IMG/VR virus record: IMGVR_UViG_3300021356_000007
Coordinates: 27,889-91,888 of that record
Length of the DNA stretch: 64,000 bases
DNA from: a virus
Reading direction: 5' to 3' (one strand)
In this document: in pieces, positions 1 to 30,694 of the stretch
Layout: each line of letters starts with the position of its first letter
Numbering within the stretch: the stretch's first letter is position 1
Notes under the pieces: generated by a model
Told to the model about the DNA's origin: nothing
What the model saw: only the letters and a program-made list of their open reading frames with translations
Databases searched by the model: none
Made by a program: the position numbers and the translations under genes

Positions 1-658
1 GTTGCTGTCCATACCTTTGTGCATCGAGTCTTAGAGGTTGTTTGGTTTCAACACCTAAGTGAGTCCTGTGTACAGCAAGAGGGGCTCTATCTAATCCTCT
101 CTTTTTCTGAGGACTCATAGTCCTTGACTGTTGTTTAGAACGCCTACTGGTTGCTGATGCGATGTTAGAACCGCCCGGTTGAATCTCAAATTGAGGCTGA
201 CTCCAAGTCTTATCCTTGGCAGTACCCATCTCATCTAACTTAGACTTCATCAAACTAGACCAAGCATCCTCCATAGGCTCACCTGTAGCGAGCATACCGC
301 CCGGTGCAGGCATAGTCCCAGTAGCAGCACCAAGACTGAGGTTACCCATATCGGGCATACCTGTCATAGCACCGAACTGCTGACCTTCATTGAATTGGTC
401 GCTCATCTGTAAAGGGTCTTCTTCTTCCTCCATCATAGGAGGCATCATAGGAGGTTCTTGTTGAGGGATTGATATTTGTAGATGCGGTAGAGTTTCACTC
501 ATAACAGGCTTTTCCTTTTCAGCCTGCTTTTCGTCACGCACCTTTTCCATTTCTTCAGGGTCGCCATAACCATGCTTGTAGTCTTCATCTTTGGAATAAC
601 CAAGATTAGACTCACTTCTAGGTGAGTACATGCGTGTATCAGAACCTGTACTTGGCAT
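1..658 (-). CDS. Hypothetical, probably virion-associated protein (3' end truncated by window edge) with internal TGEPMEDAWSSLMKS motif
   Basis: Not in the ORF track because it runs off the edge. ATG at 658 follows GAGGTGA RBS; hand translation MPSTGSDTRMYSPRSE... is open to position 1; acidic/Pro-Met N-half, basic C-half. Confidence 0.75.
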   Translation of the reverse strand, partial: MPSTGSDTRMYSPRSESNLGYSKDEDYKHGYGDPEEMEKVRDEKQAEKEKPVMSETLPHLQISIPQQEPPMMPPMMEEEEDPLQMSDQFNEGQQFGAMTGMPDMGNLSLGAATGTMPAPGGMLATGEPMEDAWSSLMKSKLDEMGTAKDKTWSQPQFEIQPGGSNIASATSRRSKQQSRTMSPQKKRGLDRAPLAVHRTHLGVETKQPLRLDAQRYGQQ

Positions 659-669
659 GTTTCTTCACC

Positions 670-1371
670 TCATAAAATGTCAAGGATGTCCTCATCCACT
701 GTTCCATCAGCGTTGGCGAGTAGGCTGGCCTTGACTCGCTTCCATACATCGGTACTTTCTTTGCCTAATTCAACTTTGAGGACATTTATCGTATTATTGG
801 CTACATTTGTAGATGGTTCAGCCCATTTTTCTTGGTAAGCACTCAAATCCTTGAGTGTCTCTCTGACCTCTTTGTGGAGTCTTACCATGTCACTGATGAC
901 ACCGTCATCGTGTATGTTGGTTTCTTCCATATACTGTGCTAACTTACCGTTCAGTCCTTGTACATTGTTCCTAAGAATATCAATTTCTTCGCCTACTTTG
1001 ATAGCAACTACGGCTGCGGAACTCTTTCTAACTAGAGGCTGGAAGTGTTGCTTCATGTGTCTATACACTGAATCTTCACTGCACTCTAGTTCCGTGGCAA
1101 TATCGTCACTGGTCCTTTCACCTTCAAAATATGCTACTTCCAATTCCTTTCGATTCTCGCTAGTGCATACTGCACATGAATGATTAGAAGTAGAATGATA
1201 TTCACCTACATGATTTTTCATGTGACGCTCTGCTGTGTTGGCTCTCCAGCCCATATCTTTATCCATTATTTGGGGGTTAGCGATACCGTCAATGATACTC
1301 TGCTCTAAAGCATCACGGTCACCATGTTGACAAAAAGAACAACTTCTCTTTGTCTGACGAGTACCTCCCAT
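670..1371 (-). CDS. Protein with two tandem CxxC...HTH...RHxxxH (Zn/HTH) units and a C-terminal coiled coil; terminase small subunit-like candidate
   Basis: CSFCQH..RDALE...ERHMKNH and CAVCTS..RKELE...YRHMKQH repeats followed by a heptad-like helix; start moved to MGGTRQ. Confidence 0.5.
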   Translation of the reverse strand: MGGTRQTKRSCSFCQHGDRDALEQSIIDGIANPQIMDKDMGWRANTAERHMKNHVGEYHSTSNHSCAVCTSENRKELEVAYFEGERTSDDIATELECSEDSVYRHMKQHFQPLVRKSSAAVVAIKVGEEIDILRNNVQGLNGKLAQYMEETNIHDDGVISDMVRLHKEVRETLKDLSAYQEKWAEPSTNVANNTINVLKVELGKESTDVWKRVKASLLANADGTVDEDILDIL

Positions 1372-1431
1372 ACCATGTCGGAGGGGGCTGGTATGAATAA
1401 CCTTTTTGAATGGGAAGGTTACCCTCATTTT

Positions 1432-1743
1432 GTGAAACTGCCTAGAATTAAGCCCAAAATCATGGGTGTACCTGTTTCTATAGAAACTGCTCGTGGCTTG
1501 TCAAGAGCCTCTAAGGATATATTAAGAAAAAGAGTAGTCCCTGAAGAAATAAAGCAAGAAAGACTCGACATTTGTATGTCCTGTCCCAGTTGGAAAAACT
1601 ACAGATGTATGGAATGTGGTTGTCAAATGCGTGTCAAGACTACACTAACATCGAGCAGATGCCCCAAAGGTAAATGGAAAGAGTACCTAGACTTCAGAAA
1701 TACGGGAATAAATACCAGTCAACATGAAGAAAGCACCGAATAA
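1432..1743 (+). CDS. Small Cys-rich protein (DUF6171-like)
   Basis: ERLDICMSCP...CMECGC...CPKGKW pattern; start uncertain (1324, 1432 or 1462). Confidence 0.6.
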   Translation: MKLPRIKPKIMGVPVSIETARGLSRASKDILRKRVVPEEIKQERLDICMSCPSWKNYRCMECGCQMRVKTTLTSSRCPKGKWKEYLDFRNTGINTSQHEESTE

Positions 1744-1929
1744 TCCCAGCACAAGGTAAGCCATTGTATTACTAGCCATCTTGCCACCTGATGTCAGCAG
1801 TAAAACTGTGAGAGTGACTATTATTGTCAATAGTTGAACCATAACCATGTCAATGATTACACTTTTACGAGGTGCAAATATTTCCATAGCAGTCCCTGAA
1901 AAGCCAGCAATTGGTGTAAAATCCTTCAT
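1687..1929 (-). CDS. Small two-TM membrane protein, last gene of the GTPase operon
   Basis: Two hydrophobic stretches (VIIDMVMVQLLTIIVTLTVLLL; MAYLVLGLFGAFFMLTGIY); GAGGTGA RBS. Confidence 0.75.
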   Translation of the reverse strand: MKDFTPIAGFSGTAMEIFAPRKSVIIDMVMVQLLTIIVTLTVLLLTSGGKMASNTMAYLVLGLFGAFFMLTGIYSRISEV

Positions 1930-1934
1930 CTATA

Positions 1935-2567
1935 TCACCTCGTACCCATAAAATTACCCATGAACTTACCCGCAGCAGAACCTGCCTTGTCCATCAGATT
2001 GTCATTAGCCAGTGCAGCACTCAAAGCCCCGCCCATCATAGATTGTTGAGCGAAAGCAGCAATCTGCTGTTGCTGCATCTCTGCGTTTTGAATACTCTGT
2101 TGACTTGCCATCTGTAAATTACTGAACTGACCTTTGACATTCTCTGCACTCATAGTCTGTAGACTATCAGGTAGAGAAGTTACATCCATTTTCATTGTCC
2201 CTTCTTTGTCGTTAATCACGAATTCGGCATTCTTTAGTATCTCAAGTACAGAAAAACTCACTAAATCGTTCATCATTTGTAAGAAAACAGCCATCTGAGC
2301 CCCTACTACGAACCTATCAATAGGTGCAAGTGAGCGCATCATAGCCATTTGTATCTCCATTTCACTCGGAGGTTGTATAGGTTGCTGCATCATATTCGCT
2401 TGCATACCCATTCCGCCCATCATTCCGCCCACAAATGTATTCTGAGAAGCCTGTTGCATCATACCTTGTGGTGCGAATGGGTTCATTTGGGCAGCCATTG
2501 GGCTAGAATTACCTTGTGCGCTGAGATTCAGTGCGCCGTTTTGCTGTTGTCCATTACCAAATATCAT
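1935..2567 (-). CDS. Gln/Met/Gly-rich low-complexity protein
   Basis: 210-aa ORF with GAGGTGA RBS, tightly spaced in the operon. Confidence 0.75.
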   Translation of the reverse strand: MIFGNGQQQNGALNLSAQGNSSPMAAQMNPFAPQGMMQQASQNTFVGGMMGGMGMQANMMQQPIQPPSEMEIQMAMMRSLAPIDRFVVGAQMAVFLQMMNDLVSFSVLEILKNAEFVINDKEGTMKMDVTSLPDSLQTMSAENVKGQFSNLQMASQQSIQNAEMQQQQIAAFAQQSMMGGALSAALANDNLMDKAGSAAGKFMGNFMGTR

Positions 2568-2578
2568 ATCTTTTCACC

Positions 2579-3592
2579 TCATACTGTGGATTGTGTAAAT
2601 ATACCTTGCTCTGTCTGTGGCAGGACATCCTGATTGATAACACCATTGGCATTTTCTTGGGGTAAACTCTGCGCTACACTAGGTTGAGGGACTTGATTTA
2701 TACCCAATTGAGTGATAGCATCGGACAAAGTAGGGCTCATATTAGCCATTTCTTGTTGAAATAGCCTCAAATCGAACACAATCATAGTCACATCGTTGAT
2801 TCCAGTCTCAGGATTCTTGTAATGTAATAGGTTAATACCGTTATATGCCTTAGAATCCTTCTCTAATTGCATGAAAAATGGCTCATATTTCTTCAATAAT
2901 TCAGGTGTATTGTCCTTCTTTTTGACTACTGCAATGGGTACAGCGACTGTAGAAACGCCCTTTTTCACCATTTCTTTCATGCCCATGCTAGTTTTATTGT
3001 GGTCTTTGTCTGCTTCAGACTCCCATTTGCACAATAAATGGTACAAATGTAGGTGTTCAGGGCAATATGTACCCTTCATTTTCCTACCATTAGTAACTTG
3101 TTCTCTTGCTACAAAGGCTTCAGGGGCATTAGTTACAGGGTTTTTCCAATACATTTCCCACAAACTCTTACCTGAAACCTCATCTGTAATCTTAGCATAG
3201 AGATTATCATACTTGATTAACTCTTCACAGTCACAACCATCAATCACACAAAGATTACTTTGTCTATTATATCTATATTTTCTACCCCAAATCCACCTTA
3301 GAGGACTGTACCACTTACGCTTAGTAGGTGTCAAAAGCCTTCTCGCACTTCTGATGTCTTGTTTTCTTGCCTTTCTTGGGTCAGGGTGACGACTTGGGTA
3401 GAAATTCACCTTTGGAACTTCTATATTCTGCTTAGCAATTTCTTGCATACCTTGTTGAGCAGCCTGCATTTCGAGTAACTGTTCATGACTAGCATTACCC
3501 TGCTGGCTCAAAGCCATCATGTGCGCCTGACTCATATTAGCCAAATTCACATCCCCTTGTGGGACTCTTCCATATCCGCCTATCCTCATCAT
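2579..3592 (-). CDS. Hypothetical protein with Gln-rich termini and a Cys/His core (CVIDGC; YCPEHLH)
   Basis: 337-aa ORF, AGGTGA RBS, operon context. Confidence 0.75.
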   Translation of the reverse strand: MMRIGGYGRVPQGDVNLANMSQAHMMALSQQGNASHEQLLEMQAAQQGMQEIAKQNIEVPKVNFYPSRHPDPRKARKQDIRSARRLLTPTKRKWYSPLRWIWGRKYRYNRQSNLCVIDGCDCEELIKYDNLYAKITDEVSGKSLWEMYWKNPVTNAPEAFVAREQVTNGRKMKGTYCPEHLHLYHLLCKWESEADKDHNKTSMGMKEMVKKGVSTVAVPIAVVKKKDNTPELLKKYEPFFMQLEKDSKAYNGINLLHYKNPETGINDVTMIVFDLRLFQQEMANMSPTLSDAITQLGINQVPQPSVAQSLPQENANGVINQDVLPQTEQGIFTQSTV

Positions 3593-3600
3593 AATATCAC

Positions 3601-4317
3601 CTAACTTAGTAACTCCATCATTGTATTTTCAACATTCCAGCCTATTCTTGTAGCCATCATTCCCCTCTTCGTAGGAACGCCCGCTTTTTGGAGGCGTACA
3701 AGGTCTTCTCTGAAGGGGTCGAACATCTTGTGTTCACCCAATCTTTGTTGCTGCCAAAGTATATTGGCTTGCTCATCCCACCATTCATCTGCTTTATTTG
3801 CAACCAACATAATAGTCTTTGGAACATACTTTTTACCTCTCAATCTACTTTTAAAATTTCTATAACGATACTGCCTGTGGAGTATTGAATCTACGAGGAA
3901 CTTAAAACCCCCCACTGCTTGTACTGCTGGGTCTCCACCTAATGTAGTTCTGTTATCAAATAAGAATATAATGGCTTCAACTTGTCTATTAACCATATCA
4001 TCTATCCAAAGATTCCAAAACCTTTCCTCACCTGCTATGTCAGAAGAATAAACTACTCTCTTGTCACCTTTCCAAGCAACTCTTTTTCTTGTAGGGTTTG
4101 GTAACAAGAATCTGTTTATACCCGGCACTTTGAAATGTTTAGTCCTTTCACTAAGAGGTATCTCTTCCATTTCGCCCGGTGTTGTCATGTAGCGGTCAAG
4201 TGTAGTCTTACCTACCATTGTCGGTCCGTACACCCCTACTCTTCTTGGCTTCCAGTAGTGGTAGAATTCCTTAGCGAACACCACTCCGCCAACTAAAGCA
4301 CTACCACCCAATGACAT
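3601..4317 (-). CDS. Ras-superfamily (Arf/Rab-like) small GTPase with N-terminal hydrophobic helix
   Basis: G1 GPTMVGKTT, G2-like RT, G3 DIAGEERF, G4 ANKAD; N-terminus MSLGGSALVGGVVFA. Confidence 0.85.
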   Translation of the reverse strand: MSLGGSALVGGVVFAKEFYHYWKPRRVGVYGPTMVGKTTLDRYMTTPGEMEEIPLSERTKHFKVPGINRFLLPNPTRKRVAWKGDKRVVYSSDIAGEERFWNLWIDDMVNRQVEAIIFLFDNRTTLGGDPAVQAVGGFKFLVDSILHRQYRYRNFKSRLRGKKYVPKTIMLVANKADEWWDEQANILWQQQRLGEHKMFDPFREDLVRLQKAGVPTKRGMMATRIGWNVENTMMELLS

Positions 4318-4318
4318 T

Positions 4319-4576
4319 TCAATTTCTCCAACTGAATATAGCGTCAGACCACTCTCTTAACTTTTCTTTGAGCCAGTCTCCAGTTGACTCCCATAAATTC
4401 CAATCAGTGTAAAACTCAAACGCACTGACTACAAACGCAGTACAAACAGAAAAAATGACGGTCCTAATCCAGCCCCACCCTCTTTCGTATGCTACATCAA
4501 CCGTATTGGCTATGTGCATACTCCTCAGTGTTTCTTCAACTGCGTCATCACTGGGGGTCTTGAAGATTCGACCCAT
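4319..4576 (-). CDS. Small single-TM protein with Trp-rich amphipathic C-terminus
   Basis: GWGWIRTVIFSVCTAFVVSAF hydrophobic segment; stop lies 1 nt from the GTPase start. Confidence 0.75.
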   Translation of the reverse strand: MGRIFKTPSDDAVEETLRSMHIANTVDVAYERGWGWIRTVIFSVCTAFVVSAFEFYTDWNLWESTGDWLKEKLREWSDAIFSWRN

Positions 4577-4582
4577 AAGTTA

Positions 4583-5137
4583 TCACTTCTCCTTTTTCTT
4601 GAATGTCCCATCTGCGTTTCTCTTTCTCTTAGCGTCTTTTTCATCATCAGTTTCTTCGAATGTTAAACCAAGTGACATAGGCTCTTTTGATACTGGTTGA
4701 GTTGCTGGTACAAAATCAGCAGTGCTAGTAGTAGGTGGATTCATCCTTTCTTGAATCCAAGGTGGAGTTTGACCGGGGTTTTGCTCAAGCCAGTTTAGTT
4801 CAGCCTCCAACTGTGCTTCTTGAAGTCTTAATTCCATGTCTTGTCTTCTACGGTCAAAGTTCATCTCCATACTTCTGTACCTTGTTTTTCTCTGTTTTTC
4901 CTGTGCGGCCAATCTCGCTCTTTCATCCATACCTTGTTGGAAGAACATTTTGAAAAGATAGTACGCTACACCCTGAACAGCAAATGCTGCCATAGCATAA
5001 GTAATTCCGTTAACTGTAGGGTCGTCTAATTTTAACCAGTATTCTGCATCGAAAACGGCTATTGCTATACCGATTGATACGGCTTGGGTGAGTATCAAAC
5101 CCATCAATCTTATTTCTGCTTGGTCTACATCTCTCAT
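4583..5137 (-). CDS. Two-TM membrane protein with long cytoplasmic coiled coil
   Basis: Two hydrophobic helices followed by a charged heptad segment (DERARLAAQEKQRK...LQEAQLEAELNW); start placed at MRDVDQ. Confidence 0.75.
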   Translation of the reverse strand: MRDVDQAEIRLMGLILTQAVSIGIAIAVFDAEYWLKLDDPTVNGITYAMAAFAVQGVAYYLFKMFFQQGMDERARLAAQEKQRKTRYRSMEMNFDRRRQDMELRLQEAQLEAELNWLEQNPGQTPPWIQERMNPPTTSTADFVPATQPVSKEPMSLGLTFEETDDEKDAKRKRNADGTFKKKEK

Positions 5138-5221
5138 TGTCTCTCTGCCACTCTGCAAAGTTATCCCTCTAACCTTCTGCAAGACCACTGCGTAAATAAA
5201 GGTATCACAAAATTAGAAGGC

Positions 5222-5257
5222 GGGTCGGCAGGGAATGAGAGAGAACCTGACCGACCC
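5222..5257 (-). terminator. Intergenic stem-loop (possible terminator or processing site)
   Basis: GGGTCGG-CAGG ... CCTG-A-CCGACCC inverted repeat just downstream of ORF 5277-6572. Confidence 0.5.
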
Positions 5258-5276
5258 ATGTGTTGTAATTATATCA

Positions 5277-6572
5277 TCAATCTTTTTTCTTTTCAGAATC
5301 AAGTTTTTCCCTCTTGCCATTCTTTGAAGGGCCCGGGCCTGCTTTAGAACCGATAACAATAACCATGCCATGTGCTGGCTTTTTGCTACCTTCTTTTTTG
5401 TTCAAATCTTCTTCACCTTTACCGTCAGCAGCGAACTTAGGGACTTTCTTGCCCTCATGCTCTACCATTTCCAGTTCTCCCTTAGCCGTACATCCCATTT
5501 TATTGACGCAGTTTTCTTTACCGCATCCGGGGCATTTAGCCTTAGACATTTCTTCATTCATCCCGTAAGGGCAGGTCATTTTACCGATGCACTCAGGTTT
5601 AGCGCATCCAGCGCACCTTGCTTTGTACATCATATCTTCAACTTGCTTCTTTATTTCTTCGCCTATATTGTTTGTAAACATATACTCACCTAATGATTTC
5701 CTAGTCCCGCCATACTCTGCCTGTTGTTCGAAAGCAGAACCCTGATTCGGATTCCAAATCTCTCTATCAAGAACAGAACTACTCTGAACATTGGAAATAT
5801 CACCCATACCTGCATTAGTCTGACCTAGACCAAATGTTGAACCTGAACCACCCCCACCAATCAAAGACGAAAGGTTTGTCCCTTGCCCGCCACCGCCACC
5901 ACCGGGCGTATTATTTTGCATATAATTCAGACCTGCCATACCGAGTCCTACTGCACCTGCACCCAAAGCACCAAGACCAGCCATTCTTCCAAGAGAAATA
6001 GACTCGTCTACTCCTTTAGCACCCCTTCCAATTTGACTGTAAGCACCTTGTCTGAAAGCACCCCTACGGGCAGCATCTGTTCCGGCTTCTCTTGCCATTC
6101 TTCGAGTATAAGGTTGGTTTCTTGCTAGTTCAAATAATCGAGCGTCTGCGTTAGCAGCAGTCACAGGAGGAAGTTGTCGGCTGACTGCATCAGCCTGCTC
6201 TCTTGCAATACGGTTTCTAGTAGCAGTTTCTGCTGCTTCTCTTGCTGCTGCTCTCTGTGAAGCAATTTGAGCCCCTCTTCTTCCAGCGAGTCTTCCCACT
6301 CCCTTAGCACCTAACTTAACTGCTGCACCTGCACCAAGACCTTGAGCCATTCCTGTACCAAACTCAAGTGCATTAGAACCAAAACTATCGTCACCTTCAG
6401 CGAGTTCCATACCAATGAATGGGTCTGTGATTTGATTATCACGGACATTCTTATAACCTTGATAAGCACCATAGCCCAATAATGCCAATGGTATAAGCGG
6501 AAGTGCCTTGTTTACGGTGTCTTCTTTAACCACCGACCATGCTCGGTCAATCGGCGAAATAGATTCCGACAT
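5277..6572 (-). CDS. Gly/Ala-rich putative internal virion/ejection protein with AWxxxK leader, hydrophobic glycine zippers and a duplicated Cys motif
   Basis: SPIDRAWSVVKE leader; ALPLIPLALLGYGAY; GRMAGLGALGAGAVGLGMAG; KARCAGCAKPEC and KAKCPGCGKENC. Confidence 0.65.
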   Translation of the reverse strand: MSESISPIDRAWSVVKEDTVNKALPLIPLALLGYGAYQGYKNVRDNQITDPFIGMELAEGDDSFGSNALEFGTGMAQGLGAGAAVKLGAKGVGRLAGRRGAQIASQRAAAREAAETATRNRIAREQADAVSRQLPPVTAANADARLFELARNQPYTRRMAREAGTDAARRGAFRQGAYSQIGRGAKGVDESISLGRMAGLGALGAGAVGLGMAGLNYMQNNTPGGGGGGQGTNLSSLIGGGGSGSTFGLGQTNAGMGDISNVQSSSVLDREIWNPNQGSAFEQQAEYGGTRKSLGEYMFTNNIGEEIKKQVEDMMYKARCAGCAKPECIGKMTCPYGMNEEMSKAKCPGCGKENCVNKMGCTAKGELEMVEHEGKKVPKFAADGKGEEDLNKKEGSKKPAHGMVIVIGSKAGPGPSKNGKREKLDSEKKKD

Positions 6573-6750
6573 GAATATCCCCATGCTGTTTGTTTTCATA
6601 AGCCTGTTGCAAGTAATGGTAACTTTCTGCGGCTTCAACAAGTAGGTTCATAGCCTCTATGCTACCGTCTTGAAGGTCTTGTATCTTACTCAAGTTGTAT
6701 TCACTAACCTTGAGTAACTCTTTCAAAAGTGTGTTCCAAAAATCTTCCAA
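6547..6750 (-). CDS. Small hypothetical protein (TTG start; MEDFWNTLLKE leader variant)
   Basis: Purine-rich RBS before TTG; fills the gap in the operon. Confidence 0.55.
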   Translation of the reverse strand: MEDFWNTLLKELLKVSEYNLSKIQDLQDGSIEAMNLLVEAAESYHYLQQAYENKQHGDIHVGIYFAD

Positions 6751-6760
6751 GTCAGTCCCT

Positions 6761-7324
6761 CTACCTAACCAGTACTATATCTGATTTAAGAGTACCTCGT
6801 TCTTTGAAATGTCGGGCTCTGTTGCTATGAGGGTCTTCTGCTACCAAAGTGTGGTCTTTGGTGTGACTCATATCAGGTCCACCCTGTCCGTAAATACCTC
6901 TTTTCCTGCGCTCACGATTCAACTCTTCACGATACTTGACACGCTTAGGACTAGACTCATACTTCTTGTCATACTCCAACTTGTGCCTTTTGGCTTCAGG
7001 GCTGACAGGACTCTTGATAACCAAGACTCCTTTGACAATAGTAGGCTTACCGCCGACACCTTGTTTCTTAGCACGCTTTCTTTTGGTAGCAGCCTGCTTC
7101 TGACCGCTAGTCATTTCACCACTGGTCTTGGGTGTTTTGCTGCTGACTCTCACACTTGGTCTACACTTTGGATAGCCTTTGCTTCCTTTCTTGGCTTTCG
7201 ACCTACCACAAGGAGGGTGCTTACCATCCTTGTCTTTACGACTGACATCTACCCACTTTTCTTTGAACCATCTGTTGAGGTTCTTGACAACTAATGTGTC
7301 ATGACAAGTGCATCTATCGTTCAT
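6761..7324 (-). CDS. Highly basic two-module protein: N-terminal LNRWFKEKWVD module (DUF5872-like) and C-terminal degenerate HNH-like module
   Basis: K/R-rich; PCGR...YPKCRP; GPDMSH...HSNRARH. Confidence 0.55.
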   Translation of the reverse strand: MNDRCTCHDTLVVKNLNRWFKEKWVDVSRKDKDGKHPPCGRSKAKKGSKGYPKCRPSVRVSSKTPKTSGEMTSGQKQAATKRKRAKKQGVGGKPTIVKGVLVIKSPVSPEAKRHKLEYDKKYESSPKRVKYREELNRERRKRGIYGQGGPDMSHTKDHTLVAEDPHSNRARHFKERGTLKSDIVLVR

Positions 7325-7527
7325 TTTTTACCCGCCCAAGCATCACATACATGGTCTGCTCGACACATGAAGTCGTACCATTCACAATAGCCCGTCATAG
7401 GGTCATCGGTCTTCGAGGAGTCCCACGCTTTACAATTACCGCACTTTTCAGAGCCAGTGGCTTTTCTATAATTAGGCGCATCCTCTTTGCCCTTAATTAT
7501 AGCCCACGCTTCTTCGAGAGGTATCAT
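7321..7527 (-). CDS. Small HiPIP-like four-Cys protein with AWxxxK leader
   Basis: PNYR....KCGNC...GYC...VCDAW resembles high-potential iron-sulfur protein Cys spacing; leader PLEEAWAIIKG. Confidence 0.5.
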   Translation of the reverse strand: MIPLEEAWAIIKGKEDAPNYRKATGSEKCGNCKAWDSSKTDDPMTGYCEWYDFMCRADHVCDAWAGKK

Positions 7528-7727
7528 TTCTTCTTCCCCTTTTTCTTACCACGGAACTTACCCTTACAGTATTGAACAGCCCAGCCATTTGCATAAGCAG
7601 ATGGATAAACTTTGAATTTTCTTTTTGCTGCTGCTTTACCAGCAGGACAGAGTTTCTTTTCTAAAAAATCAAAAGCAGAGTCGATACCTATGCAATGTCC
7701 ACAGTCGCACTCACTCAACAGTTCCAC
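7524..7727 (-). CDS. Small basic protein (KFKVYPSAYANGW motif, DUF5872-like)
   Basis: Motif common in small basic phage proteins; Cys-containing leader ending in SAFDFLEKK. Confidence 0.55.
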   Translation of the reverse strand: MELLSECDCGHCIGIDSAFDFLEKKLCPAGKAAAKRKFKVYPSAYANGWAVQYCKGKFRGKKKGKKK

Positions 7728-8104
7728 CTCTTTAATGCCGCACCTTTAGGTGTTAATTTACCTTTTTTACTGGTTGGACCTTTAACTCCACTCATACGAG
7801 CACAGAATGATTTTCTCCTTTTCGATGCCTTGCTACCCCTTTTTAGTTTAGAAGGCTTCTTAGTGACAGGTCTTTTCAGATTTGCGCCCGTCTTACGCTT
7901 TGCTGCCGCACGACCCTTAGCATTGAGTCCTCCAGTCTTGGCGTGTTTGTTAGGATTGTAACCGTGGAAAGGTTTTGACTTTTTCTTGGCTTTCATAACC
8001 GCAAGACTGAGTTCCATAGGACTACAGCAATCACAGAAATTGACATCCGACCAGTCGGTTTTACCTACAATGTCAGCCTCAGTCAACCATTCTATATCTG
8101 TCAT
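7715..8104 (-). CDS. Small basic protein (RRKSFCARM...ALKRWNC motif)
   Basis: Acidic Cys leader ending in AVMKA, then a very K/R-rich domain; ATG overlaps the upstream TGA. Confidence 0.6.
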   Translation of the reverse strand: MTDIEWLTEADIVGKTDWSDVNFCDCCSPMELSLAVMKAKKKSKPFHGYNPNKHAKTGGLNAKGRAAAKRKTGANLKRPVTKKPSKLKRGSKASKRRKSFCARMSGVKGPTSKKGKLTPKGAALKRWNC

Positions 8105-8925
8105 ACTAATCCCTTCAATAATCTCCAAGCCATATTCATCGGCTCGCCTGTTTGTATATCCCTTTCTTCGTCTCTTCTCCTTACTGCATCCCTAAACGCA
8201 GGTGGTAAATTAGCATATTTATCAAAAGGCTCAGGTGCAGGCGGAGGAGTTTGTAAATCTTCAAAGGTAGACGGTACATCTCTTGGGAAGAAATCTACCC
8301 TGTTAGGTAGCCCTTCGTGGATTCTTGAGTTGTTGTGTGTATCTTGCTCAGGAAGTATAGGGCTTGTCGTAGGTAAAACATGTATGTTTTGTCGAGTTTT
8401 ATCATTTAGCATACCATGCCCTATAGTCTTGAGTTGCAACTTATCATTCTCATCTAAGTTAAAATGAGGAGTTACGGTATGACTCAGTCCCATTTGCTTT
8501 TCACTTTCGTCAAGTTTAGGGTCATCAGTTCTCATCACATCAAAACTCAGACTAGGTTCACGCTCATCTAGTCGCTCATCAGATGCAGGCTTCTTGAGTT
8601 TCATAGCCTCAATTATCTCAGGATGATTGTTAGCCAAATCGTTAGCCATAAAGGAAAAGATGTCTGCTAAATTGAACTTATAGCCTTTCATACCTCTTTT
8701 CTTGAATGCATTCGGCAACTCTTGATTTTCATTGTATCTCTGACTTAATCGCTTTTTGTAATGCTCATGAGGGTTAGCGTTAACATGTTCAAGTGGTTTT
8801 CTACTCTTCACCCTGTCCATCATTCGTTGTGACAAATTGTCGTAATACTCTTCAGGGAGGTGATTAAGTAAAGTATAATCTTTGAGTAAAACCCAAGCCT
8901 GCTGTAGACTATGGCTTTCGCTCAT
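8101..8925 (-). CDS. Hypothetical protein carrying the AWxxLK motif at both ends
   Basis: N-terminal SLQQAWVLLKD, C-terminal IQTGEPMNMAWRLLKG; internal HEHYKKRLSQR. Confidence 0.7.
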   Translation of the reverse strand: MSESHSLQQAWVLLKDYTLLNHLPEEYYDNLSQRMMDRVKSRKPLEHVNANPHEHYKKRLSQRYNENQELPNAFKKRGMKGYKFNLADIFSFMANDLANNHPEIIEAMKLKKPASDERLDEREPSLSFDVMRTDDPKLDESEKQMGLSHTVTPHFNLDENDKLQLKTIGHGMLNDKTRQNIHVLPTTSPILPEQDTHNNSRIHEGLPNRVDFFPRDVPSTFEDLQTPPPAPEPFDKYANLPPAFRDAVRRRDEERDIQTGEPMNMAWRLLKGLV

Positions 8926-8962
8926 GGCTGTCGCATGTTTGCACAGAACAAAAAGATTAGGG

Positions 8963-9024
8963 TGGCTGACAGGAAAAAAAGAGGAAGTGCAACCCCGGTT
9001 GGTGTTAGGTCGGCCTGTCAGCCA
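8963..9024 (-). terminator. 11-bp stem-loop containing a T-tract on the minus strand
   Basis: TGGCTGACAGG (8963-8973) pairs with CCTGTCAGCCA (9014-9024). Confidence 0.5.
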
Positions 9025-9048
9025 AAGTTGAATCCAAAGTAGACTATA

Positions 9049-9186
9049 TTATTCTTTTGTAAAAAGAGTGCACATTTCACAATACCAAGCGAGCCCTCTG
9101 AAAACACCGTTGACTTTCATGTAAACTCTTTTGGTAGGATGATGAAAACAATGTTCGCATTTGATGCTTTTTCTTTTACCCGCCAA
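9049..9186 (-). CDS. 45-aa Zn-ribbon micro-protein
   Basis: Hand translation from TTG after GGTGAGG RBS: MAGKRKSIKCEHCFHHPTKRVYMKVNGVFRGLAWYCEMCTLFTKE. Confidence 0.55.
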   Translation of the reverse strand: MAGKRKSIKCEHCFHHPTKRVYMKVNGVFRGLAWYCEMCTLFTKE

Positions 9187-9247
9187 GTCCTCACCCGCTT
9201 ACAGGGCAAGTGAAGTGCATTCACTACTTGTAGTTTGGTGTCACTAT

Positions 9248-10501
9248 TCAGGCTGACCTATCAATTTCACCCTGAACCTTAGAACCATCTTGGCGACCCA
9301 TGTTCATTGCTGCCTGCATAAGTTGCTGTCTAGCAAATTGTTGTGCCTCCGGGCTAGATGGGTCAGCGAATGCTCTCATAGTTGGTGTATTTCTTAAGCC
9401 CGGACTTAGCATTATTTCTTTTTCTTCAGCACTCATAGGTTGCCTTTGCATGTCATCCATTGCTTGTCTCCTTGCGCCAGTCATCCTTGGCTCGAATAAT
9501 TTACGAGAAACTCTCTCAGGTTTGTCCTCTTCGACAGGTGCTTCTTGTATTTTAGAACCGCCCGGTGTCATCATACCTTCGAGCATTGCTCGGATTCTAT
9601 CTTCTTGGCTCATTTCTTGAGGTGCTTCTTCTTGTTCAGGTTGAATGAATCTAGTTGTCATACCGGATAGAGGGTCTTTTCCAAAACCTCCAGTCTTCAT
9701 ACCTTCGACATTGCTAAGTTTTGAAGCAGACCTTTGACGAGCAAATGGATTTCTTTGGACCCTGCCAGTCTTATCACTGACTACTGGCTGATTGAATTGG
9801 TCTGTTTGCATACCAAGGTTCAGTAAATTTTGACCTGACCTAGCACCACCTCTAACATCGAACCTACCGCCTCTGCTACCTGAAACCATACGGTCAGCAG
9901 CAGATGTCATACCTTCTCTACCTCTTGCTCTTTCAAGCGGAGTAGTGAAACTTTGTTCAGGGTCTACATCCATCATAGGGATAGTCTGTGTAGGGTGTCT
10001 CACTTCTAGTTGCCCTGTGTTTGGGTTCAAAGCCATACTCGTACCCATTTGGTCTACCACATCTTCTCTTAGAGGACTGATGTCTCTCTCGATAGCAGCG
10101 ACACTTTGAGGGATAGGGTCACCCCTGCCTCCTCCAAGGTTACCTAGAGGAACTGGAACGCTCGCTGTCATTTCACCGGGTCTTTCTACATCACGCTGTA
10201 CTGCGTCACCTCTACCACTAAAGGTATCAGTCATCCCCTCTAGTTCAGCCCTTTGCTCAGGAGTAAGCATCTCCAAATCTTTACCTCTTAGTCTGTTGAG
10301 CATACCGCCCCTCATTGTCGCTACTGGGTTCAAAACTCTTGTAGCGATACCTTGACGATTATCTAAAGCACTGTCGCCCATGTATTCATCAATGTATTCG
10401 TTAGACGGCATACCTGCAATAGCAGGGTGAACTGTACCGTATATACCCTGTGCGCCGGGTTGTGCTTTCAATGTAGTCCAAGCGTTTTCGAGTGCGCTCA
10501 T
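9248..10501 (-). CDS. Low-complexity Met/Gln/Arg-rich protein with AWxxLK leader; putative internal virion protein
   Basis: MSALENAWTTLKA start; T-rich TATA-like box about 25 nt upstream. Confidence 0.7.
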   Translation of the reverse strand: MSALENAWTTLKAQPGAQGIYGTVHPAIAGMPSNEYIDEYMGDSALDNRQGIATRVLNPVATMRGGMLNRLRGKDLEMLTPEQRAELEGMTDTFSGRGDAVQRDVERPGEMTASVPVPLGNLGGGRGDPIPQSVAAIERDISPLREDVVDQMGTSMALNPNTGQLEVRHPTQTIPMMDVDPEQSFTTPLERARGREGMTSAADRMVSGSRGGRFDVRGGARSGQNLLNLGMQTDQFNQPVVSDKTGRVQRNPFARQRSASKLSNVEGMKTGGFGKDPLSGMTTRFIQPEQEEAPQEMSQEDRIRAMLEGMMTPGGSKIQEAPVEEDKPERVSRKLFEPRMTGARRQAMDDMQRQPMSAEEKEIMLSPGLRNTPTMRAFADPSSPEAQQFARQQLMQAAMNMGRQDGSKVQGEIDRSA

Positions 10502-25421: not shown

Positions 25422-25811
25422 ATGACAACGACAAAGAATACACTTAGAAAAGAACTCCGTAAGATACAGGAGAAGATGGAACTACTATCGGATTTCGAGA
25501 GTTACAATTTCGAACACAAGACTTGCGAAAACAACGAACATGAATGGGCAAACCCTGAAGTCATATCGCACGAGGCAGGTTGTATCAAAACAAGTGATAC
25601 TTGCAGACTTTGTGGCGTGACGACCATCAGGATATACAACCTAGACAAAGTCGTATACGAAGATGACTACGAGGAATTCAGAGACGAATCCCTCGACCAA
25701 GAAACCACAGAAACAGATGACAAACCTACACTTCCACTGGAGAAAACCAGCCAAAGCGATGGCACATACAAAGTGGATGTTGCTAGTATTTTAGGGAGAG
25801 ATGAAGAATGA
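25422..25811 (+). CDS. Hypothetical protein (C/H Zn motif, acidic tail)
   Basis: ORF directly after promoter. Confidence 0.65.
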   Translation: MTTTKNTLRKELRKIQEKMELLSDFESYNFEHKTCENNEHEWANPEVISHEAGCIKTSDTCRLCGVTTIRIYNLDKVVYEDDYEEFRDESLDQETTETDDKPTLPLEKTSQSDGTYKVDVASILGRDEE

Positions 25812-26008
25812 ATGAGAAGGAACAAGAGTTACGGGAAATAGAGGAACTGGCTAAGTTGGCTGATGAAGTAGAAGGAATGGTAAGCCATCTCCTAGAAGAG
25901 ATGAGACATCATGACTTCCAAGAGCCACACGGCTGGCTGTCACAGATAGTCCACGAACTGAGGACAGAGATTGAACAGAAGCACAAAGAACTGGAGGCGA
26001 AAGAATGA
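25808..26008 (+). CDS. Small helical protein
   Basis: ATGA-coupled ORF. Confidence 0.55.
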   Translation: MNEKEQELREIEELAKLADEVEGMVSHLLEEMRHHDFQEPHGWLSQIVHELRTEIEQKHKELEAKE

Positions 26009-26180
26009 GACAACTAGCAAGAGGGGCGGCAAGCATCCGTATGGAACTCACAGATGGACAACTATTAGTATTCCACGGTGATGACGGTATCAAGTTACAT
26101 CAAAGACCAATCTACGAAGGAGAGTGGGATGAACTTTGGAACTGGATAAGAACTACACCGGAAGAACTGGAGGCGAAAGA

Positions 26181-26597
26181 ATGAGGCAACTAATTAGCAT
26201 AGACGAAATACAAAGACTCGGATTGACAAAGGAGATGATACCGCCACAGAAAGGGTATCAACTGGATGCAATGTATGCCTTTGACTTGAGCGAAACTCAG
26301 CGAAACGGCAAGAGAGATGAACTGCTTGAGGATGGCTATACTGAGGAACAGATAGTATGGGAAGTAGTCGAAGGTAACACACTCCTTTGGCTACCTATTG
26401 ACCCTGACAGAAAATACAGGAACATCAGACTCACTTTCACGAACGACTCATACTCATCCTGCGCCCTGCCGTGGGAGACAGATACGACACTCTACGATAT
26501 TGCTTACTGGAATGAAAGTGAGGAAGACATCAGTTACCTCATCGGACAACTGGAAGAGGCTTGTGCAGAAATAGTGAAGAAATGGAATGGTGAATAA
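26181..26597 (+). CDS. Hypothetical acidic protein
   Basis: GGAGG RBS before MRQLIS. Confidence 0.6.
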   Translation: MRQLISIDEIQRLGLTKEMIPPQKGYQLDAMYAFDLSETQRNGKRDELLEDGYTEEQIVWEVVEGNTLLWLPIDPDRKYRNIRLTFTNDSYSSCALPWETDTTLYDIAYWNESEEDISYLIGQLEEACAEIVKKWNGE

Positions 26598-27113
26598 GAA
26601 TGAAGGTGAAACAAAGAAATTGGCTAGAAATAGTGATGAAGGTATTCGAAGCACAGAGAGAGATGTACCACCAAATTGATGAGTCTCGTGGGTTAGACCT
26701 ATCCGATTTGAGCGAGCAAGAGAAAATGGAATGGATAGCAGATTTAATAGAGTGTGAACAAAGATGACTACACTACCAAAAGATATGATTGGGATAAAAA
26801 TGGAACCCATTTGGGAAAATGAATACTATGAAATTAACTTTGAAGATTTTTCGGATGAAGAATTGATAGATTTGAGAAATTGGATAAATAAATATCTATC
26901 ATTTAGATTAATAATAGAAGTAATAGGAGATGAATGAATGAGCGAAACAGAACAGACAGTAAATGAGATAAGAGAACATCTCGAAGATGCAGTACATCTA
27001 GCCCACTCTCTGATGATGGCTCTTGAAATGAAAGATAGTGACTACAGTTACTTCAACAACACAGTCGCAGCACTAGAGATGATGCTATCAAGAACAGTAC
27101 TAGGTGAATAGAT

Positions 27114-29219
27114 ATGGAGATAGTAACCACAGTAGTCTACAAGAATGACTACGGTGACGAGAGGCTGGGTCTCAAGTACAATTACAACCCTGACACAAAT
27201 GAAATGCTCAAAGCCAATCTTAGATTTCCTAAGTTCGCTTGGGACAAAGACAGAAAGATGTGGAATGTTGAGAACAACAAATCAGTAATCAAACAACTGT
27301 GTGACACACTCGATGCGATTGGTCGCTATGATACATCGGCAATCAGAGACTACGCAGAGGTGTACTCCACTGATGCACCCAGCAGAAGTGACTGCTGGAC
27401 TAAAGTGAAGCGCACCCGTATGTATCTGAACTGGCCTTGGATTAACGACCCTGACTTGAGAGATGATGTCAGACTCGCAGTGAAGAGTATCAGTGGTAGC
27501 CGGTGGCACAATGCGGAGAAAAGTTGGTCTATACCTACGCCACAGGCTACCACCCTACACGGACTGCTAGAGGACTTGTACCCACCACTGGCTGAAGCAA
27601 TCATCAGCAACGAGGACATCAAGGAAGCAGTAGTCAAGAGCATTGAGCGTGTCAAGATAAGCGGTGCTAAGCAACTAGACGAAGCAACACAACTTGACAT
27701 TGACAGCAGACTGGCTGGTAAATTCCCTGAAGGTCTTGACCTCTACCCGTTCCAAAAGGTAGCGGTGGCTTTCGCAGAGATGGCTGGCGGTAGGTGTTTG
27801 ATTGGTGACGAGATGGGCATTGGTAAAACAATCAGTGCTATCGGTTACTCAGCCTTGCACCCTGAAGCGAGACCAGCGATTGTTCTTTGTCCTTCGAATG
27901 TAAAGTTCAACTGGAAGAAGGAACTGAACAAGTGGTTACCTACTGAATCAGTGCATGTAGTGCAACCTGACAACGAACTGAAGGTTCAGTACTTCAAGGA
28001 CATCGCTGAATCTCTAGGAGGTACAGGAGAACAAATCAGAACTGGCAACAATGCCAAGAAGTACATCAAGTCAAAGGGTTTCAATCCTATGACATACATA
28101 CCCAAGTGTGATTTCGTAGTTGTCAACTACGATGTGATTGAGAAGTTCAAGGACTCACTCATCGACATATCACCGAAACTAATCATACTCGATGAGAGCC
28201 ACTACATCAAGAACAGTGGCTCTAATAACAAACCTGTTCAGAGGACTGTGGCTACGCTAGAAGTGTGTAGTTACATTGAGAAGGTAATCGCACTATCAGG
28301 TACAGCGATTGCAAGTAGACCGAAGGAGTTCTTCAACACATTGAACCTACTCAACCCTGCTCTGTTCAGGAGTGAATGGGATTTCAAGCAGAGGTACTGT
28401 GACCCTTTCCATAACGGAATCGGATGGGACTTCAATGGCGCATCCAATACCAAAGAACTGAATGAGAGAACAAGAGACCTGTGTATCAGGAGACTCAAGA
28501 GCGAAGTACTACCTGAACTCCCACCAAAGACTAGAACATTCTTACCGATTGTACTGGACAAGGCTACTAGAAGCCCTTACGACTCAGCACAAGATGAGTG
28601 GGACAAGAAGATTGACAGTTATTATCTCAACGGTCAACCCCTACCAGCAGGTACGATGCTGAACATGATTAACGACTTGCGTCACATGTGCGGTCACATC
28701 AAAGTCAATTACGCAGTTGGTTGGATTAACCAGTACCGTGAACAAACAGGTAAGCCGATTGTAGTATTCACGCATCACTGAGATGTTCTCAGTCGTTTGG
28801 CTGAGAAGATGAGCAATGTCAAAACCATCACAGGTGACACACCTTCGCACACTAGACAGGAGATAGTCGATGACTTCCAAGCAGGCAACATCGGTGTACT
28901 CATCTGTAACACAGTCGCAGCGAAGGAAGGTATCACACTCACTAGAGCAGACACAGTTCTGTTCCTAGAGCGTGAATGGACTCCTACTGACGAAGAACAA
29001 GCAGAGGACAGAGTGTATCGTATTGGGCAAGAGAGCCAGCATGTACACGCTGTCTATCTGTCATGCGAAGGGACAATTGATGAACACTTTGACAGAGTCA
29101 TTGAGTCTAAGAGAGCAGTAGTCAAAGCAGTGCTGGATGGCGGAGATGTAGAACAGCGAAAGGGATTGGTCGCCCAACTTGTCAAGCGACTACAACAAGA
29201 GAGAGGTTGGAAGATATGA
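27114..29219 (+). pseudogene. SNF2/SMARCAL1(HARP)-like SF2 helicase interrupted by one in-frame TGA at 28779-28781
   Basis: LYPFQ, DEMGIGKT, LDESHYIK, LSGT, RRLKSEVLPELP; after TGA the same frame gives DVLSRL...ITGDT...KEGITLT...EQAEDRVYRIGQ. Confidence 0.85.
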
Positions 29220-29413
29220 GAGAGAATTGGAATGGTAGAACACAAGAGATACACAAGGACATGATTATGTACATCATGGACTGTTATACCCACAGAAGAG
29301 AAGACAGAGAACACTTCATGGATATGAGAGACATCAGTAAAGAACTAGAAGAATCCCTGTGGTGGGAATTGGCTCATCTTGTCGCAAAGAAGTTTAACAT
29401 AAAGGGTGACTGA
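29216..29413 (+). CDS. Small hypothetical protein
   Basis: ATGA-coupled ORF. Confidence 0.55.
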   Translation: MRENWNGRTQEIHKDMIMYIMDCYTHRREDREHFMDMRDISKELEESLWWELAHLVAKKFNIKGD

Positions 29414-29600
29414 AATGAAGAGAATAACGAAACACACTAAGCAATTAGTATGGCACATATTGAGTGAAGGGATGGATAGAGAATGCCCGTCTTTACTAGA
29501 GATAGCAAACCATGAATGGGAATGCGAGACAAACAGACCATACACCATGGAAGATTACTGGGATGCTTACTATTGGATTCTCAAGAAGGTAGGTAATTGA
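29406..29600 (+). CDS. Small hypothetical protein
   Basis: ORF in operon. Confidence 0.5.
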   Translation: MTEMKRITKHTKQLVWHILSEGMDRECPSLLEIANHEWECETNRPYTMEDYWDAYYWILKKVGN

Positions 29601-29601
29601 C

Positions 29602-29931
29602 ATGGGTATCGGAGTAGAATATATTCAAGACCACAACCAAGAATACTGGTACGACAATCTCTTAGGAATGCTCAAGATGGTAGACCAAATTATCAGAATC
29701 TACGGTGATGACGAAGAGACATTCAGAGAGCGTATCAGTGACTACATGTGGGAATTAGTCGTCAGGAATCTTGACGCTGATACCAAAGCAAGACATGACG
29801 GCGAGTTCGAGAGGTGCGGTACATTCCCTAAGTTCAAGGGCGAGCCGGGCATCAGTCATCTGATTGCTGAGGCTTACCCTAGAGAGAATCCACTCAAGCC
29901 TCAAGACCTAGAAGACCAAGAATCCGATTGA
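29602..29931 (+). CDS. Hypothetical protein
   Basis: ORF in operon. Confidence 0.6.
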   Translation: MGIGVEYIQDHNQEYWYDNLLGMLKMVDQIIRIYGDDEETFRERISDYMWELVVRNLDADTKARHDGEFERCGTFPKFKGEPGISHLIAEAYPRENPLKPQDLEDQESD

Positions 29932-30694
29932 GTTCGGTTTGCTGGTTACTGACACGGTCAGACAAATCTAGTTCTTGTTGTGCAGTCATTGGTACTTCAG
30001 AATCGAACACTGGGTCAACGAAGTCTTCAAATGACTGTGCATCTATTTGTCTAGCGAATGGCTGTAACTGAGCGTCAGTTAATTCATAGTCAATCCCATA
30101 CCTGCGAGGGTCTTTTCTAGCCAACCTAGAAGCCATCTGAGCGACTGGGTCTTTTGGGTGAGCAGCACCATAGAACATAGGGTCATTGAATAAAGCGTGT
30201 CCTTCTATGGGTCTACCAGTAACCTGACTCGCAGTCAATGCCGTGGGTCGGTCTACTGCCATCCAGTTAGGAGGCTTTGCATCTGCTACGCCGGTAGCCT
30301 CTGCTAGGGGTATGGCATGGTGTATGGATGTAGCGAGTGTTCTACCTCTGTCTGAGTCAGCCTTTGGATTACCTGATTCGGCAAATGGTCTGCCTCTTAT
30401 CTGTTGAGATAAAATAGGCGTACCACGACCTGACATAAATTGTTGAGCCTCCGGTGGCAATTCATAAGTCTGCGCTATTGGTGTCTGTTCAACAAAGATG
30501 TCCGGCATCAAACGAGCCAACTGGCTCGCAAGGTACATGTCACTCAATGTATTACCGTGACCTACCTTAGTAACATCAGGATTACCTTCTTGACCGAACA
30601 CCATCTGATTCATCCCCTGCCCTATCCGAACACCTTCGGAGGGTTGGAAGACAGCCTTGAGCAATAACCATGCTCTCTCAAATGGGCTGTTCAT
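29894..30694 (-). CDS. Lone antisense gene with AWxxLK leader and a possible protein-kinase-like fold
   Basis: MNSPFERAWLLLKA; IGQGMNQMVF (G-loop-like), VTKVG (VAIK-like), DAKPPNW (DxKxxN), LFNDP (DFG-like). Confidence 0.55.
   Translation of the reverse strand: MNSPFERAWLLLKAVFQPSEGVRIGQGMNQMVFGQEGNPDVTKVGHGNTLSDMYLASQLARLMPDIFVEQTPIAQTYELPPEAQQFMSGRGTPILSQQIRGRPFAESGNPKADSDRGRTLATSIHHAIPLAEATGVADAKPPNWMAVDRPTALTASQVTGRPIEGHALFNDPMFYGAAHPKDPVAQMASRLARKDPRRYGIDYELTDAQLQPFARQIDAQSFEDFVDPVFDSEVPMTAQQELDLSDRVSNQQTELNRILGLLGLEA

Follow-up and report, generated by a model that had tools for sequence, protein, structure and literature searches.

Why would a virus place the same short peptide on proteins that otherwise have nothing in common? 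The question is raised by a 64,000-nucleotide stretch of DNA (the window, by which we mean the whole stretch that was analysed), which is bases 27,889-91,888 of one 91,888-bp viral contig, IMG/VR record IMGVR_UViG_3300021356_000007. The contig is a ~92-kb magrovirus-type genome of a tailed virus. A preliminary description of the window, made from its letters alone, had pointed out an amphipathic peptide of the form A-W-x-x-L-K and had read it as a packaging and cleavage tag that loads effectors into the viral head. We find that the peptide is a real and portable tag: it is under selection at the protein level, is restricted to genes in the late orientation, is specific to these viruses, and is carried by a hypervariable repertoire of proteins. 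The tag is apparently unpublished; we found no description of it in magrovirus papers or by searching the literature for motif strings. As to its role, the chances are about even that it is a portable address label, trimmed by a protease, that loads proteins into the capsid much as the capsid-targeting sequence (CTS) of phage T4 does.

A portable peptide tag on late proteins

Each copy that the preliminary description listed is present in the sequence at its position, and the recurrence only in minus-strand genes holds for the seven strong copies (five N-terminal, one C-terminal, and one internal), all in the late orientation. When the whole 91,888-bp genome was scanned with a 10-column position-specific scoring matrix (PSSM) built from relatives, there were seven matches of at least 14.9 bits, every one in a minus-strand gene. 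By chance, as judged from shuffled proteomes, 0.18 matches would be expected with a score of at least 12 bits and 0.06 with a score of at least 16 bits. A profile hidden Markov model (HMM) leaves a gap between six true copies (at least 6.8 bits) and all other proteins (at most 0.2 bits). It has six copies rather than seven because its gene set did not include the 68-aa open reading frame (ORF) at 7321-7527. The strong copies are, in window coordinates:

245..286, minus strand: internal tag TGEPMEDAWSSLMK, in the +1 register (A-W-x-x-L-x-K), residues 129-142 of a conserved 373-aa protein; PSSM score 14.9
6525..6572, minus strand: N-terminal tag MSESISPIDRAWSVVK of a 431-aa Gly-rich, Cys-rich protein (gene 5277-6572); 21.4 bits
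7492..7527, minus strand: N-terminal tag MIPLEEAWAIIK of a 68-aa four-Cys protein (gene 7321-7527); 19.6 bits
8113..8148, minus strand: C-terminal tag GEPMNMAWRLLK, the second copy in a 274-aa protein (gene 8101-8925); 26.7 bits
8881..8925, minus strand: N-terminal tag MSESHSLQQAWVLLK of the same 274-aa protein; 20.9 bits
10466..10501, minus strand: N-terminal tag MSALENAWTTLK of a 417-aa low-complexity protein (gene 9248-10501); 19.5 bits
30656..30694, minus strand: N-terminal tag MNSPFERAWLLLK of a kinase-like protein (gene 29894-30694); 29.7 bits

Several of these copies are conserved in relatives. The gene for the 373-aa protein (G000:27425-28546, in coordinates of the full contig) has only its C-terminal 219 codons inside the window (2-658), with the rest beyond the window's left end, and its family keeps GEPM[ED]xAWS[ST]L[ML]K in nearly all relatives, in some of them twice. 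Orthologues of the 431-aa protein retain the tag in 23 loci (cluster 3). In the family of the 68-aa protein (n = 14), A7, W8, and K12 of the tag are invariant. The C-terminal copy in the 274-aa protein is followed by GLV and then the stop codon; it is kept in four related loci (L003, L004, L008, and L039), and in other relatives the equivalent position is internal, with another module behind it. The kinase-like gene is the only tagged gene outside the block at 5277-10501 and is antisense to its early-gene neighbours. Its homologues range from 39 to 89% identity, and all that align keep the tag region, with A8, W9, L12, and K13 invariant.

To find out how widespread the tag is, we turn to 80 related IMG/VR loci, which were fetched via a neighbouring GTPase gene (63-99% identity). 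In these loci, the PSSM has 457 matches on the gene strand versus 25 on the opposite strand. N-terminal copies make up 241 of the 457, and in about 130 cases the first Met is followed 6-7 residues later by the start of the Ala-Trp pair. N-terminal copies have the consensus M-x-[P/A]-[F/M/I]-[D/E]-x-A-W-x-[L/I/V]-L-K. Within long ORFs, an internal form ([G/S]-E-P-M-[D/E]-[I/L]-A-[W/F/M]-[R/Q]-L-L-K) joins unrelated modules, with up to five copies per ORF, and at times it sits at the extreme C-terminus. Cutting the ORFs at the tags leaves 536 body segments, which fall into at least 158 BLAST clusters (the largest cluster is a chain of at least three families). The same modules can be fused in one genome and split in another. 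We also examined eight further complete or nearly complete relatives, in which a core DNA pattern has 53 matches versus 1 for a reversed control. Here the copies are mostly in one or a few single-strand groups with a few scattered elsewhere, and the window's kinase-like gene is an example of such a distant copy. The scan of the full genome and of related genomes that the preliminary description had proposed confirms the seven strong copies and shows that the tag is common among the relatives.

Is it the peptide or the DNA that is conserved? In the motif, every available codon is used for Ala (four), Pro (four), Leu (six), and Lys (two). Because synonymous codons vary freely in the conserved columns, selection acts on the peptide. 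This free variation, together with the internal copies, rules out an element at the nucleotide level (a promoter, a signal for leaderless mRNA, or a repeat). It also bears on whether the tag is just a junction for recombination and shuffling, or else a generic helix for oligomerisation or stability with no common destination. Modules that lie between two identical tag peptides do resemble inserted cassettes (as in locus L015, below), and the gene content of the block turns over quickly even between near-identical genomes. But the DNA homology at the tags is poor while the peptide is kept, and W and K are invariant over the 158 or more body clusters, so we consider this explanation very improbable.

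The tag is also specific to this group of viruses: a stricter N-terminal pattern is found in over 120 IMG/VR stretches among the matches listed, whereas 596 Gb of cellular genomes contain it at only eight places, which is about the chance level. (One of the eight is a Poseidoniales single-cell contig, discussed below.) The preliminary description had held that its reading would suffer if the motif were equally frequent in early proteins or in host proteins. Neither is the case, as no copy was found in the early plus-strand genes of this genome and cellular genomes are at about the chance level.

The tag has 10-12 residues with an acidic consensus and would form an amphipathic helix of two and a half turns. 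The layout is an initial Pro, hydrophobic residues at -3, 0, +1, +3, and +4, and acidic residues and the Lys on the opposite side. The F/M-x3-W-x2-L spacing is as in amphipathic helices that bind to grooves. Two tagged proteins were modelled with AlphaFold2 (AF2); in both models, the tag forms a helix of its own, joined by a low-confidence linker to a body that folds well alone. It is not a Sec or Tat signal peptide: there is no twin-arginine and no hydrophobic region of 10 or more residues, and this acidic amphipathic 12-mer also occurs at internal and C-terminal positions.

Besides the strong copies, the block contains four features that bear on the boundaries of the motif:

6721..6750, minus strand: MEDFWNTLLK, a non-member, at the start of a conserved 67-aa gene (6547-6750); PSSM below 8
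6761..7324, minus strand: two-module basic protein of 187 aa with a DUF5872-like N-half and a phrog_6437 C-half; the junction is KGVLVIK-SPVSPE
7653..7688, minus strand: variant tag IDSAFDFLEKK, in the +1 register, preceding a small basic DUF5872-like domain (gene 7524-7727; phrog_27331)
7991..8023, minus strand: degenerate tag SPMELSLAVMK, preceding a basic DUF6321 domain (gene 7715-8104; Pfam DUF6321, E 4e-15)

The first of these had been counted as a copy of the tag. The 67-aa gene is real and conserved, but its orthologues read xDWW.ELF..ML.V., which is in a different register and lacks both a conserved Lys and an Ala before the Trp, so we removed it from the set. In contrast, the two sequences that had been listed as looser versions (at 8104 and 7727) do belong, as degenerate or +1-register members, since orthologues have canonical tags at the same positions. 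Orthologues of the gene at 7715-8104 range from a canonical APFDEAWDLLK (e.g., APFDEAWDLLK-AKKKSK) through to the degenerate form. Those of the gene at 7524-7727 have M[DG]xA[FW]DxLEKK (e.g., MD-x-AWD-x-LEKK), and locus L023 has a canonical MDTAFQILK. At the junction of the 187-aa protein, relatives have an insertion of a module together with one canonical tag or two, as in L015 (GGKPTIVKS-PMDIAWRLLK-[module]-PMDIAWRLLK-DAVSPE).

There are also a few stray similarities. In a region of micro-ORF cassettes, the plus strand at 34889-34930 matches at the level of a regular expression only (D-L-V-D-A-W-E-R-I-K, PSSM below 8), probably by chance. At 5040-5082 on the plus strand, antisense to the gene at 4583-5137, there is a frame with A-I-P-I-D-T-A-W-V-S-I-K-P (PSSM 14.4), and in relatives this frame is an ORF of 190-230 aa that begins M-A-I-P-I-[DE]-T-A-W. 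It is probably a by-product of conserved codons for a transmembrane helix on the sense strand. Finally, the 305-aa gene just upstream of the terminase encodes a Gly-rich, Arg/Gln-rich protein that has no tag in this genome. In several relatives, proteins of this type carry a C-terminal tag, G-E-P-M-E-L-A-F-R-L-L-K (homologues of the gene are at L025:16907-18442 and L072:14138-15055).

The proteins behind the tag

The preliminary description had called the bodies behind the tag unrelated, which BLAST confirms. Few of them are recognizable: Pfam domains are present in only about eight of 150 cluster representatives and are DnaJ-type zinc fingers, NUDIX, HD, DUF6321, or LIM.

Two bodies can be assigned to a fold. 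First, the 266-aa protein encoded at 29894-30694 had been labelled kinase-like, and its motifs (G-x-G, V-T-K-V, and D-x-K-P-x-N-W), its AF2 model, and Foldseek support a kinase-like fold. The model has a mean predicted local distance difference test (pLDDT) score of 88.9; the tag helix (residues 4-12) is of low confidence and lies apart from the body. The best Foldseek matches are all protein-kinase-like (AceK, Haspin, Rio2, and OspG), with template modelling (TM) scores of 0.3-0.37. Because these scores are low, the assignment is to a fold class only. Second, a family in the relatives with an invariant Y-H-G-T is predicted to have an ADP-ribosyltransferase fold. It has weak Pfam matches to PARP and Tpt1/KptA, and its model matches only ADP-ribosyltransferase folds in Foldseek (KptA, Arr/rifampin ADP-ribosyltransferase, PARP10/14, and pertussis S1; best E 3e-3). 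Members are found as stand-alone or polyprotein-like ORFs:

L047:2079-2552, L059:2308-2778, L027:695-1369, L021:2850-3278, and L040:6794-7453: Y-H-G-T family

In some genomes this domain is behind an N-terminal tag and in others it is behind an internal tag of a polyprotein-like ORF. Since the same domain follows either form, the two forms of the tag are equivalent.

The four-Cys protein of 68 aa is weakly HiPIP-like: its profile matches five HiPIP entries, at E values of 0.1-0.8, which supports the earlier label weakly. The label of a basic protein fared better, as there are matches to DUF6321 and DUF5872. In fact there are three small and very basic proteins: the 67-aa ORF at 7524-7727, the N-half of the 187-aa ORF at 6761-7324, and the DUF6321 protein. 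Two T7-like marine phages encode untagged homologues of all three, which are adjacent to one another and are flanked by the scaffold gene and the major-capsid gene:

L189, Prochlorococcus phage P-SCSP2, 4094-5072: homologues of the basic proteins
L188, pelagiphage HTVC131P, 4673-5162: homologues of the basic proteins

The archaeal-virus members of these families have gained an extension at the N-terminus, and the tag is within it. This set of head-gene-linked basic proteins is uncharacterised and is common to bacterial and archaeal viruses.

Proposed destination and processing of tagged proteins

Where would the tag send these proteins? The late operon for head morphogenesis begins in the left part of the window, and the virus is best explained as a tailed virus of the magrovirus type whose hosts are Poseidoniales archaea. 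On the minus strand, the left arm of the genome has genes for a large terminase of the T4 type, a portal, an S78 prohead protease with a long scaffold-like tail fused to it, and a major capsid protein of the SU10/HK97 type. The plus-strand arm has a gene set of a size that would suit a family-B polymerase, and a group II chaperonin/thermosome (Cpn60_TCP1, E 3e-131). This layout agrees with that of published magroviruses of Marine Group II (Poseidoniales) archaea (PMC5434244). The tagged genes (5277-10501) are the first genes of the leftward late operon. Downstream on the same strand are a small-GTPase operon, the tagged 373-aa gene, the terminase, the portal, a 1928-aa gene, the protease-scaffold, and the capsid protein.

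The archaeal host that had been proposed for this virus gains support from a single-cell genome. Candidatus Poseidoniales archaeon AG-422-I20 contains a 106,262-bp contig (CACGHY010000002.1; our L174/L177) with nine tags within 8 kb, of the variant A-W-x-[V/I]-[V/T]-K, and a capsid protein that is 66% identical to that of the virus studied here. The contig is probably an infecting or resident magrovirus, which would make it a direct link to the host.

Two neighbours of the tagged genes are of interest in their own right. The GTPase operon (1687-5137), which lies amid the tagged genes, encodes a Ras/Arf-like small GTPase (with G1, D-x-A-G-E, and N-K-x-D motifs), two membrane proteins, and one Gln/Met-rich protein. 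None of the proteins of this operon has a Pfam match; homologues are present in over 200 IMG/VR contigs. Between the terminase and the portal, a 433-aa gene (G000:21722-23023) without a Pfam match contains a LAGLIDADG-like segment, A-A-G-F-L-D-A-D-G-Y-I-T-I, and may derive from a homing endonuclease inside the head module.

The evidence for the capsid as the destination is circumstantial: the tagged genes belong to the head-morphogenesis operon, and untagged homologues of the bodies lie between scaffold and capsid genes of T7-like phages. The evidence for a cut after the Lys is of the same kind, namely the presence of an S78 protease, the tags that join modules in polyprotein-like ORFs, and a boundary in the capsid protein. 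We compared 124 homologues of the capsid protein (31-57% identity; the gene is at G000:10478-11605, left of the window). They have an N-terminal extension of variable length (16-108 aa) that ends in hydrophobic-x-[K/R], followed by a conserved N-arm, [A/K/S/T]-D-[A/D]-P-h-L-[T/S]-[T/S]-T (here A-D-A-P-L-L-S-T-T). The boundary has K or R in 84% of the homologues and a hydrophobic residue at P3 in 83%. In this virus it lies within residues 30-45, and the site S-E-L-L-K | A-D-A-P is invariant in all close relatives. Judging from this alignment, the boundary is likely to be the maturation cleavage site of the SU10-type capsid family. HK97 protease cuts its own capsid protein after Lys103. The [L/I/V]-L-K ending of the tag resembles the capsid boundary.

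We found no useful solved structure that is related in sequence to the capsid protein or the protease and that could place the mature N-terminus. The HFTV1 capsid protein, which loses 100 residues, is of a different type and was rejected as a guide. One protein homologue search from the capsid protein returned near-identical sequences only.

We propose the following mechanism. The hydrophobic face of the tag (F/M, A, W, L, L) would dock into a single virus-encoded partner in the assembling prohead, which may be the interior of the scaffold, the interior of the capsid protein, or the S78 protease itself. The tagged proteins would thereby be assembled inside the head. The S78 (HK97-type) protease would then cut behind the invariant Lys, which would remove N-terminal tags and separate the modules that are joined by tags. 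Once freed, the bodies (kinase-like, ADP-ribosyltransferase-fold, NUDIX, HD, small basic DNA-binding-like, and many disordered) would leave the head with the DNA at infection. We read the tag as a docking element first and a cleavage site second, because the conserved C-terminal copies require the helix as a docking element in its own right. A more specific version, in which a receptor in the prohead reads the 12-residue Trp helix and thereby loads an exchangeable, rapidly shuffled arsenal for host takeover into the capsid for injection, we consider somewhat less probable than an even bet.

In phage T4, the basic internal proteins and the ADP-ribosyltransferase Alt reportedly carry a CTS (Mullaney and Black in 1996, for IPI-III and Alt). 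This short sequence is removed by the head protease, the proteins that bear it are core components, and IPI is injected (PMC9958956). The magrovirus tag is similar in that it is a short leader that is common to otherwise unrelated proteins encoded with head genes, that its cargo includes small basic proteins and an ADP-ribosyltransferase (here by predicted fold; the T4 proteins are non-essential), and that its ending may be compatible with the head protease (h-L-K, versus h-x-[K/R] in the capsid protein). Also fitting the T4 model are the position in the late operon, cargo that is both basic and enzymatic, the strings of modules joined by tags, the Lys-specific-looking protease site, and the linkage of body homologues to head genes in other phages. 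However, the tag has no similarity to MKTYQEFIAE of T4, and the magrovirus protease belongs to Pfam Peptidase_S78 (HK97-type) rather than being gp21. The putative cut is after Lys instead of Glu. Also, the magrovirus tag occurs at internal and C-terminal positions and on well over 100 body families, the host is an archaeon, and packaging is inferred.

Other systems share some of these features. In the giant phages phiKZ, 201phi2-1, and SPN3US, ejection or inner-body proteins are processed by the prohead protease (PMC7411985, PMC10052503). These phages parallel the processing of polyprotein-like cargo, as many proteins are inside the head and some are cut several times at one motif. However, their propeptides are long and dissimilar, whereas in the magroviruses the 12-residue helix itself is conserved. 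The giant-phage cut motif has three residues, S/A/G-x-E. Encapsulin cargo-loading peptides, which dock inside an HK97-fold shell, are short conserved peptides on unrelated cargo, and they act at a terminus without cleavage, which would explain the C-terminal copies of the magrovirus tag. They are Gly/Ser-Leu-rich extended segments, in contrast to a Trp-containing helix, and the magrovirus system has no encapsulin: its shell gene is a viral capsid protein in a full tailed-virus module. Polyvalent proteins and other phage cargo that is linked to MuF or the portal (said to be the subject of Iyer et al. in 2017) are strings of unrelated enzyme modules in or near the head module and are thought to be borne in the capsid. 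The layout of beads on a string is all that they share with the magrovirus proteins: there is no match to MuF or a related Pfam family in the portal, the 433-aa neighbour, the 1928-aa protein, or the tagged proteins, we found no fusion to MuF or the portal and no known linker domain, and most of the tagged proteins are from separate small genes, each with its own tag. Finally, in Staphylococcus phage 80alpha, ribosomal protein L27 and the scaffold and capsid proteins have a common N-terminal leader that is processed by Prp. This too is one short leader on unrelated proteins that is removed by a dedicated protease, but Prp is a host protease with another motif, only two phage proteins are involved, and the leader has no addressing role.

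Several observations weigh against loading into the capsid with a cut after the Lys. The match between the ending of the tag and the capsid boundary is suggestive but of low information. There is no enrichment of A-D after the Lys of the tag (10 observed versus 8 expected), and the tripeptide [LI]LK is not depleted from late proteins. In a related virus, the tags end in V-V-K or V-T-K while the capsid site is still L-L-K, so the two do not co-vary. C-terminal copies with only 2-4 residues behind them fit docking but make no sense as cleavage sites, so the peptide cannot be a cleavage site alone. The preliminary description had suggested a search of the scaffold, portal, and capsid genes, and in this genome neither the scaffold tail nor the portal, the protease, or the capsid protein is matched by the tag profile. 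One tagged gene (29894-30694) is amid early genes. And the operon of a small GTPase and membrane proteins that lies among the tagged genes is an equally possible partner.

There are loose likenesses to the tag in the scaffold tail (M-D-W-S-E-V-H-R-L) and in a 164-aa protein beside the portal (A-Y-E-L-L-K). At the protease-scaffold junction, F-R-I-L-K is conserved; because it is inside the Pfam S78 match, it may be a strand of that fold. A complex prediction for a 32-residue tag peptide with the protease-scaffold and the capsid protein (using alignments) scored 0.00 and was made without controls, so it counts neither way.

If the tag is a docking motif, then its partner could be outside the head, and this is the main rival to loading into the capsid. 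The hub could be the module of the GTPase and membrane proteins above all, or the viral thermosome, or a host protein; we think this unlikely, at roughly half the weight of the capsid. The clients would then be gathered at a compartment or membrane site made by the virus instead of in the head. The spacing of the tag is that of a classic groove-binding helix, and the tag is found alike at N-terminal, internal, and C-terminal positions. The GTPase operon, which is conserved in the related contigs, has the tagged block on one side and the tagged 373-aa gene on the other, and the thermosome is in every relative tested. (The only tag-rich genome without a match to the GTPase is G010, whose contig breaks exactly where the operon is expected.) In contrast, nothing directly links the tag to the GTPase module, the thermosome, or a host protein, and it is the head that is indicated by the strand and operon of the tagged genes and by the homologues of three bodies in head-gene clusters of unrelated phages.

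Alternatively, the tag could be a processing site only, where the S78 protease or a host protease cuts polyprotein strings, with no addressing and with the N-terminal copies being relics of gene fission. This would account for the invariant terminal Lys, for ORFs in which as many as five copies join the modules, and for modules that are fused in some genomes and split in others. But relics would not be expected to be conserved like catalytic residues over 39-50% identity, as the ~241 copies near a Met are; C-terminal copies are kept in several lineages; and 10-12 conserved residues with helical periodicity exceed what a protease site usually needs. We therefore consider it improbable. The strict conservation of N-terminal copies and the free variation at synonymous sites weaken both this explanation and recombination.

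Overall, the preliminary reading holds up in part: the tag is portable, acts at the protein level, is specific to the virus group, and marks a hypervariable set that includes effector-like enzymes. We infer the capsid destination, the cleavage after Lys, and the injection.

Implications for magroviruses

A leader shared by the cargo of a virion is a class already known from T4. What is new here is that diverse capsid proteins have a conserved Lys boundary, that T7-like marine phages carry untagged homologues of the basic bodies between their scaffold and capsid genes, that two bodies can be assigned to a fold, that a single-cell genome provides a link to the host, and that the copy at 6750 does not belong to the tag family.

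Among viruses of archaea in the surface ocean, magroviruses rank with the most abundant, and to our knowledge none is in culture. The tag lists the candidate effectors in each genome and so gives a handle on how magroviruses take over their hosts. It also predicts exact new N-termini, which can be searched for in existing marine metaproteomes. If the tag does load proteins into the capsid, then archaeal viruses whose protease is of the HK97 type would also inject proteins in the style of T4, which would be the first such system in an archaeal virus, and the tag would be a natural, portable, and compact way to load HK97-fold capsids, including engineered ones. If the partner is something else, then the tag would point to an unrecognised hub in these viruses.

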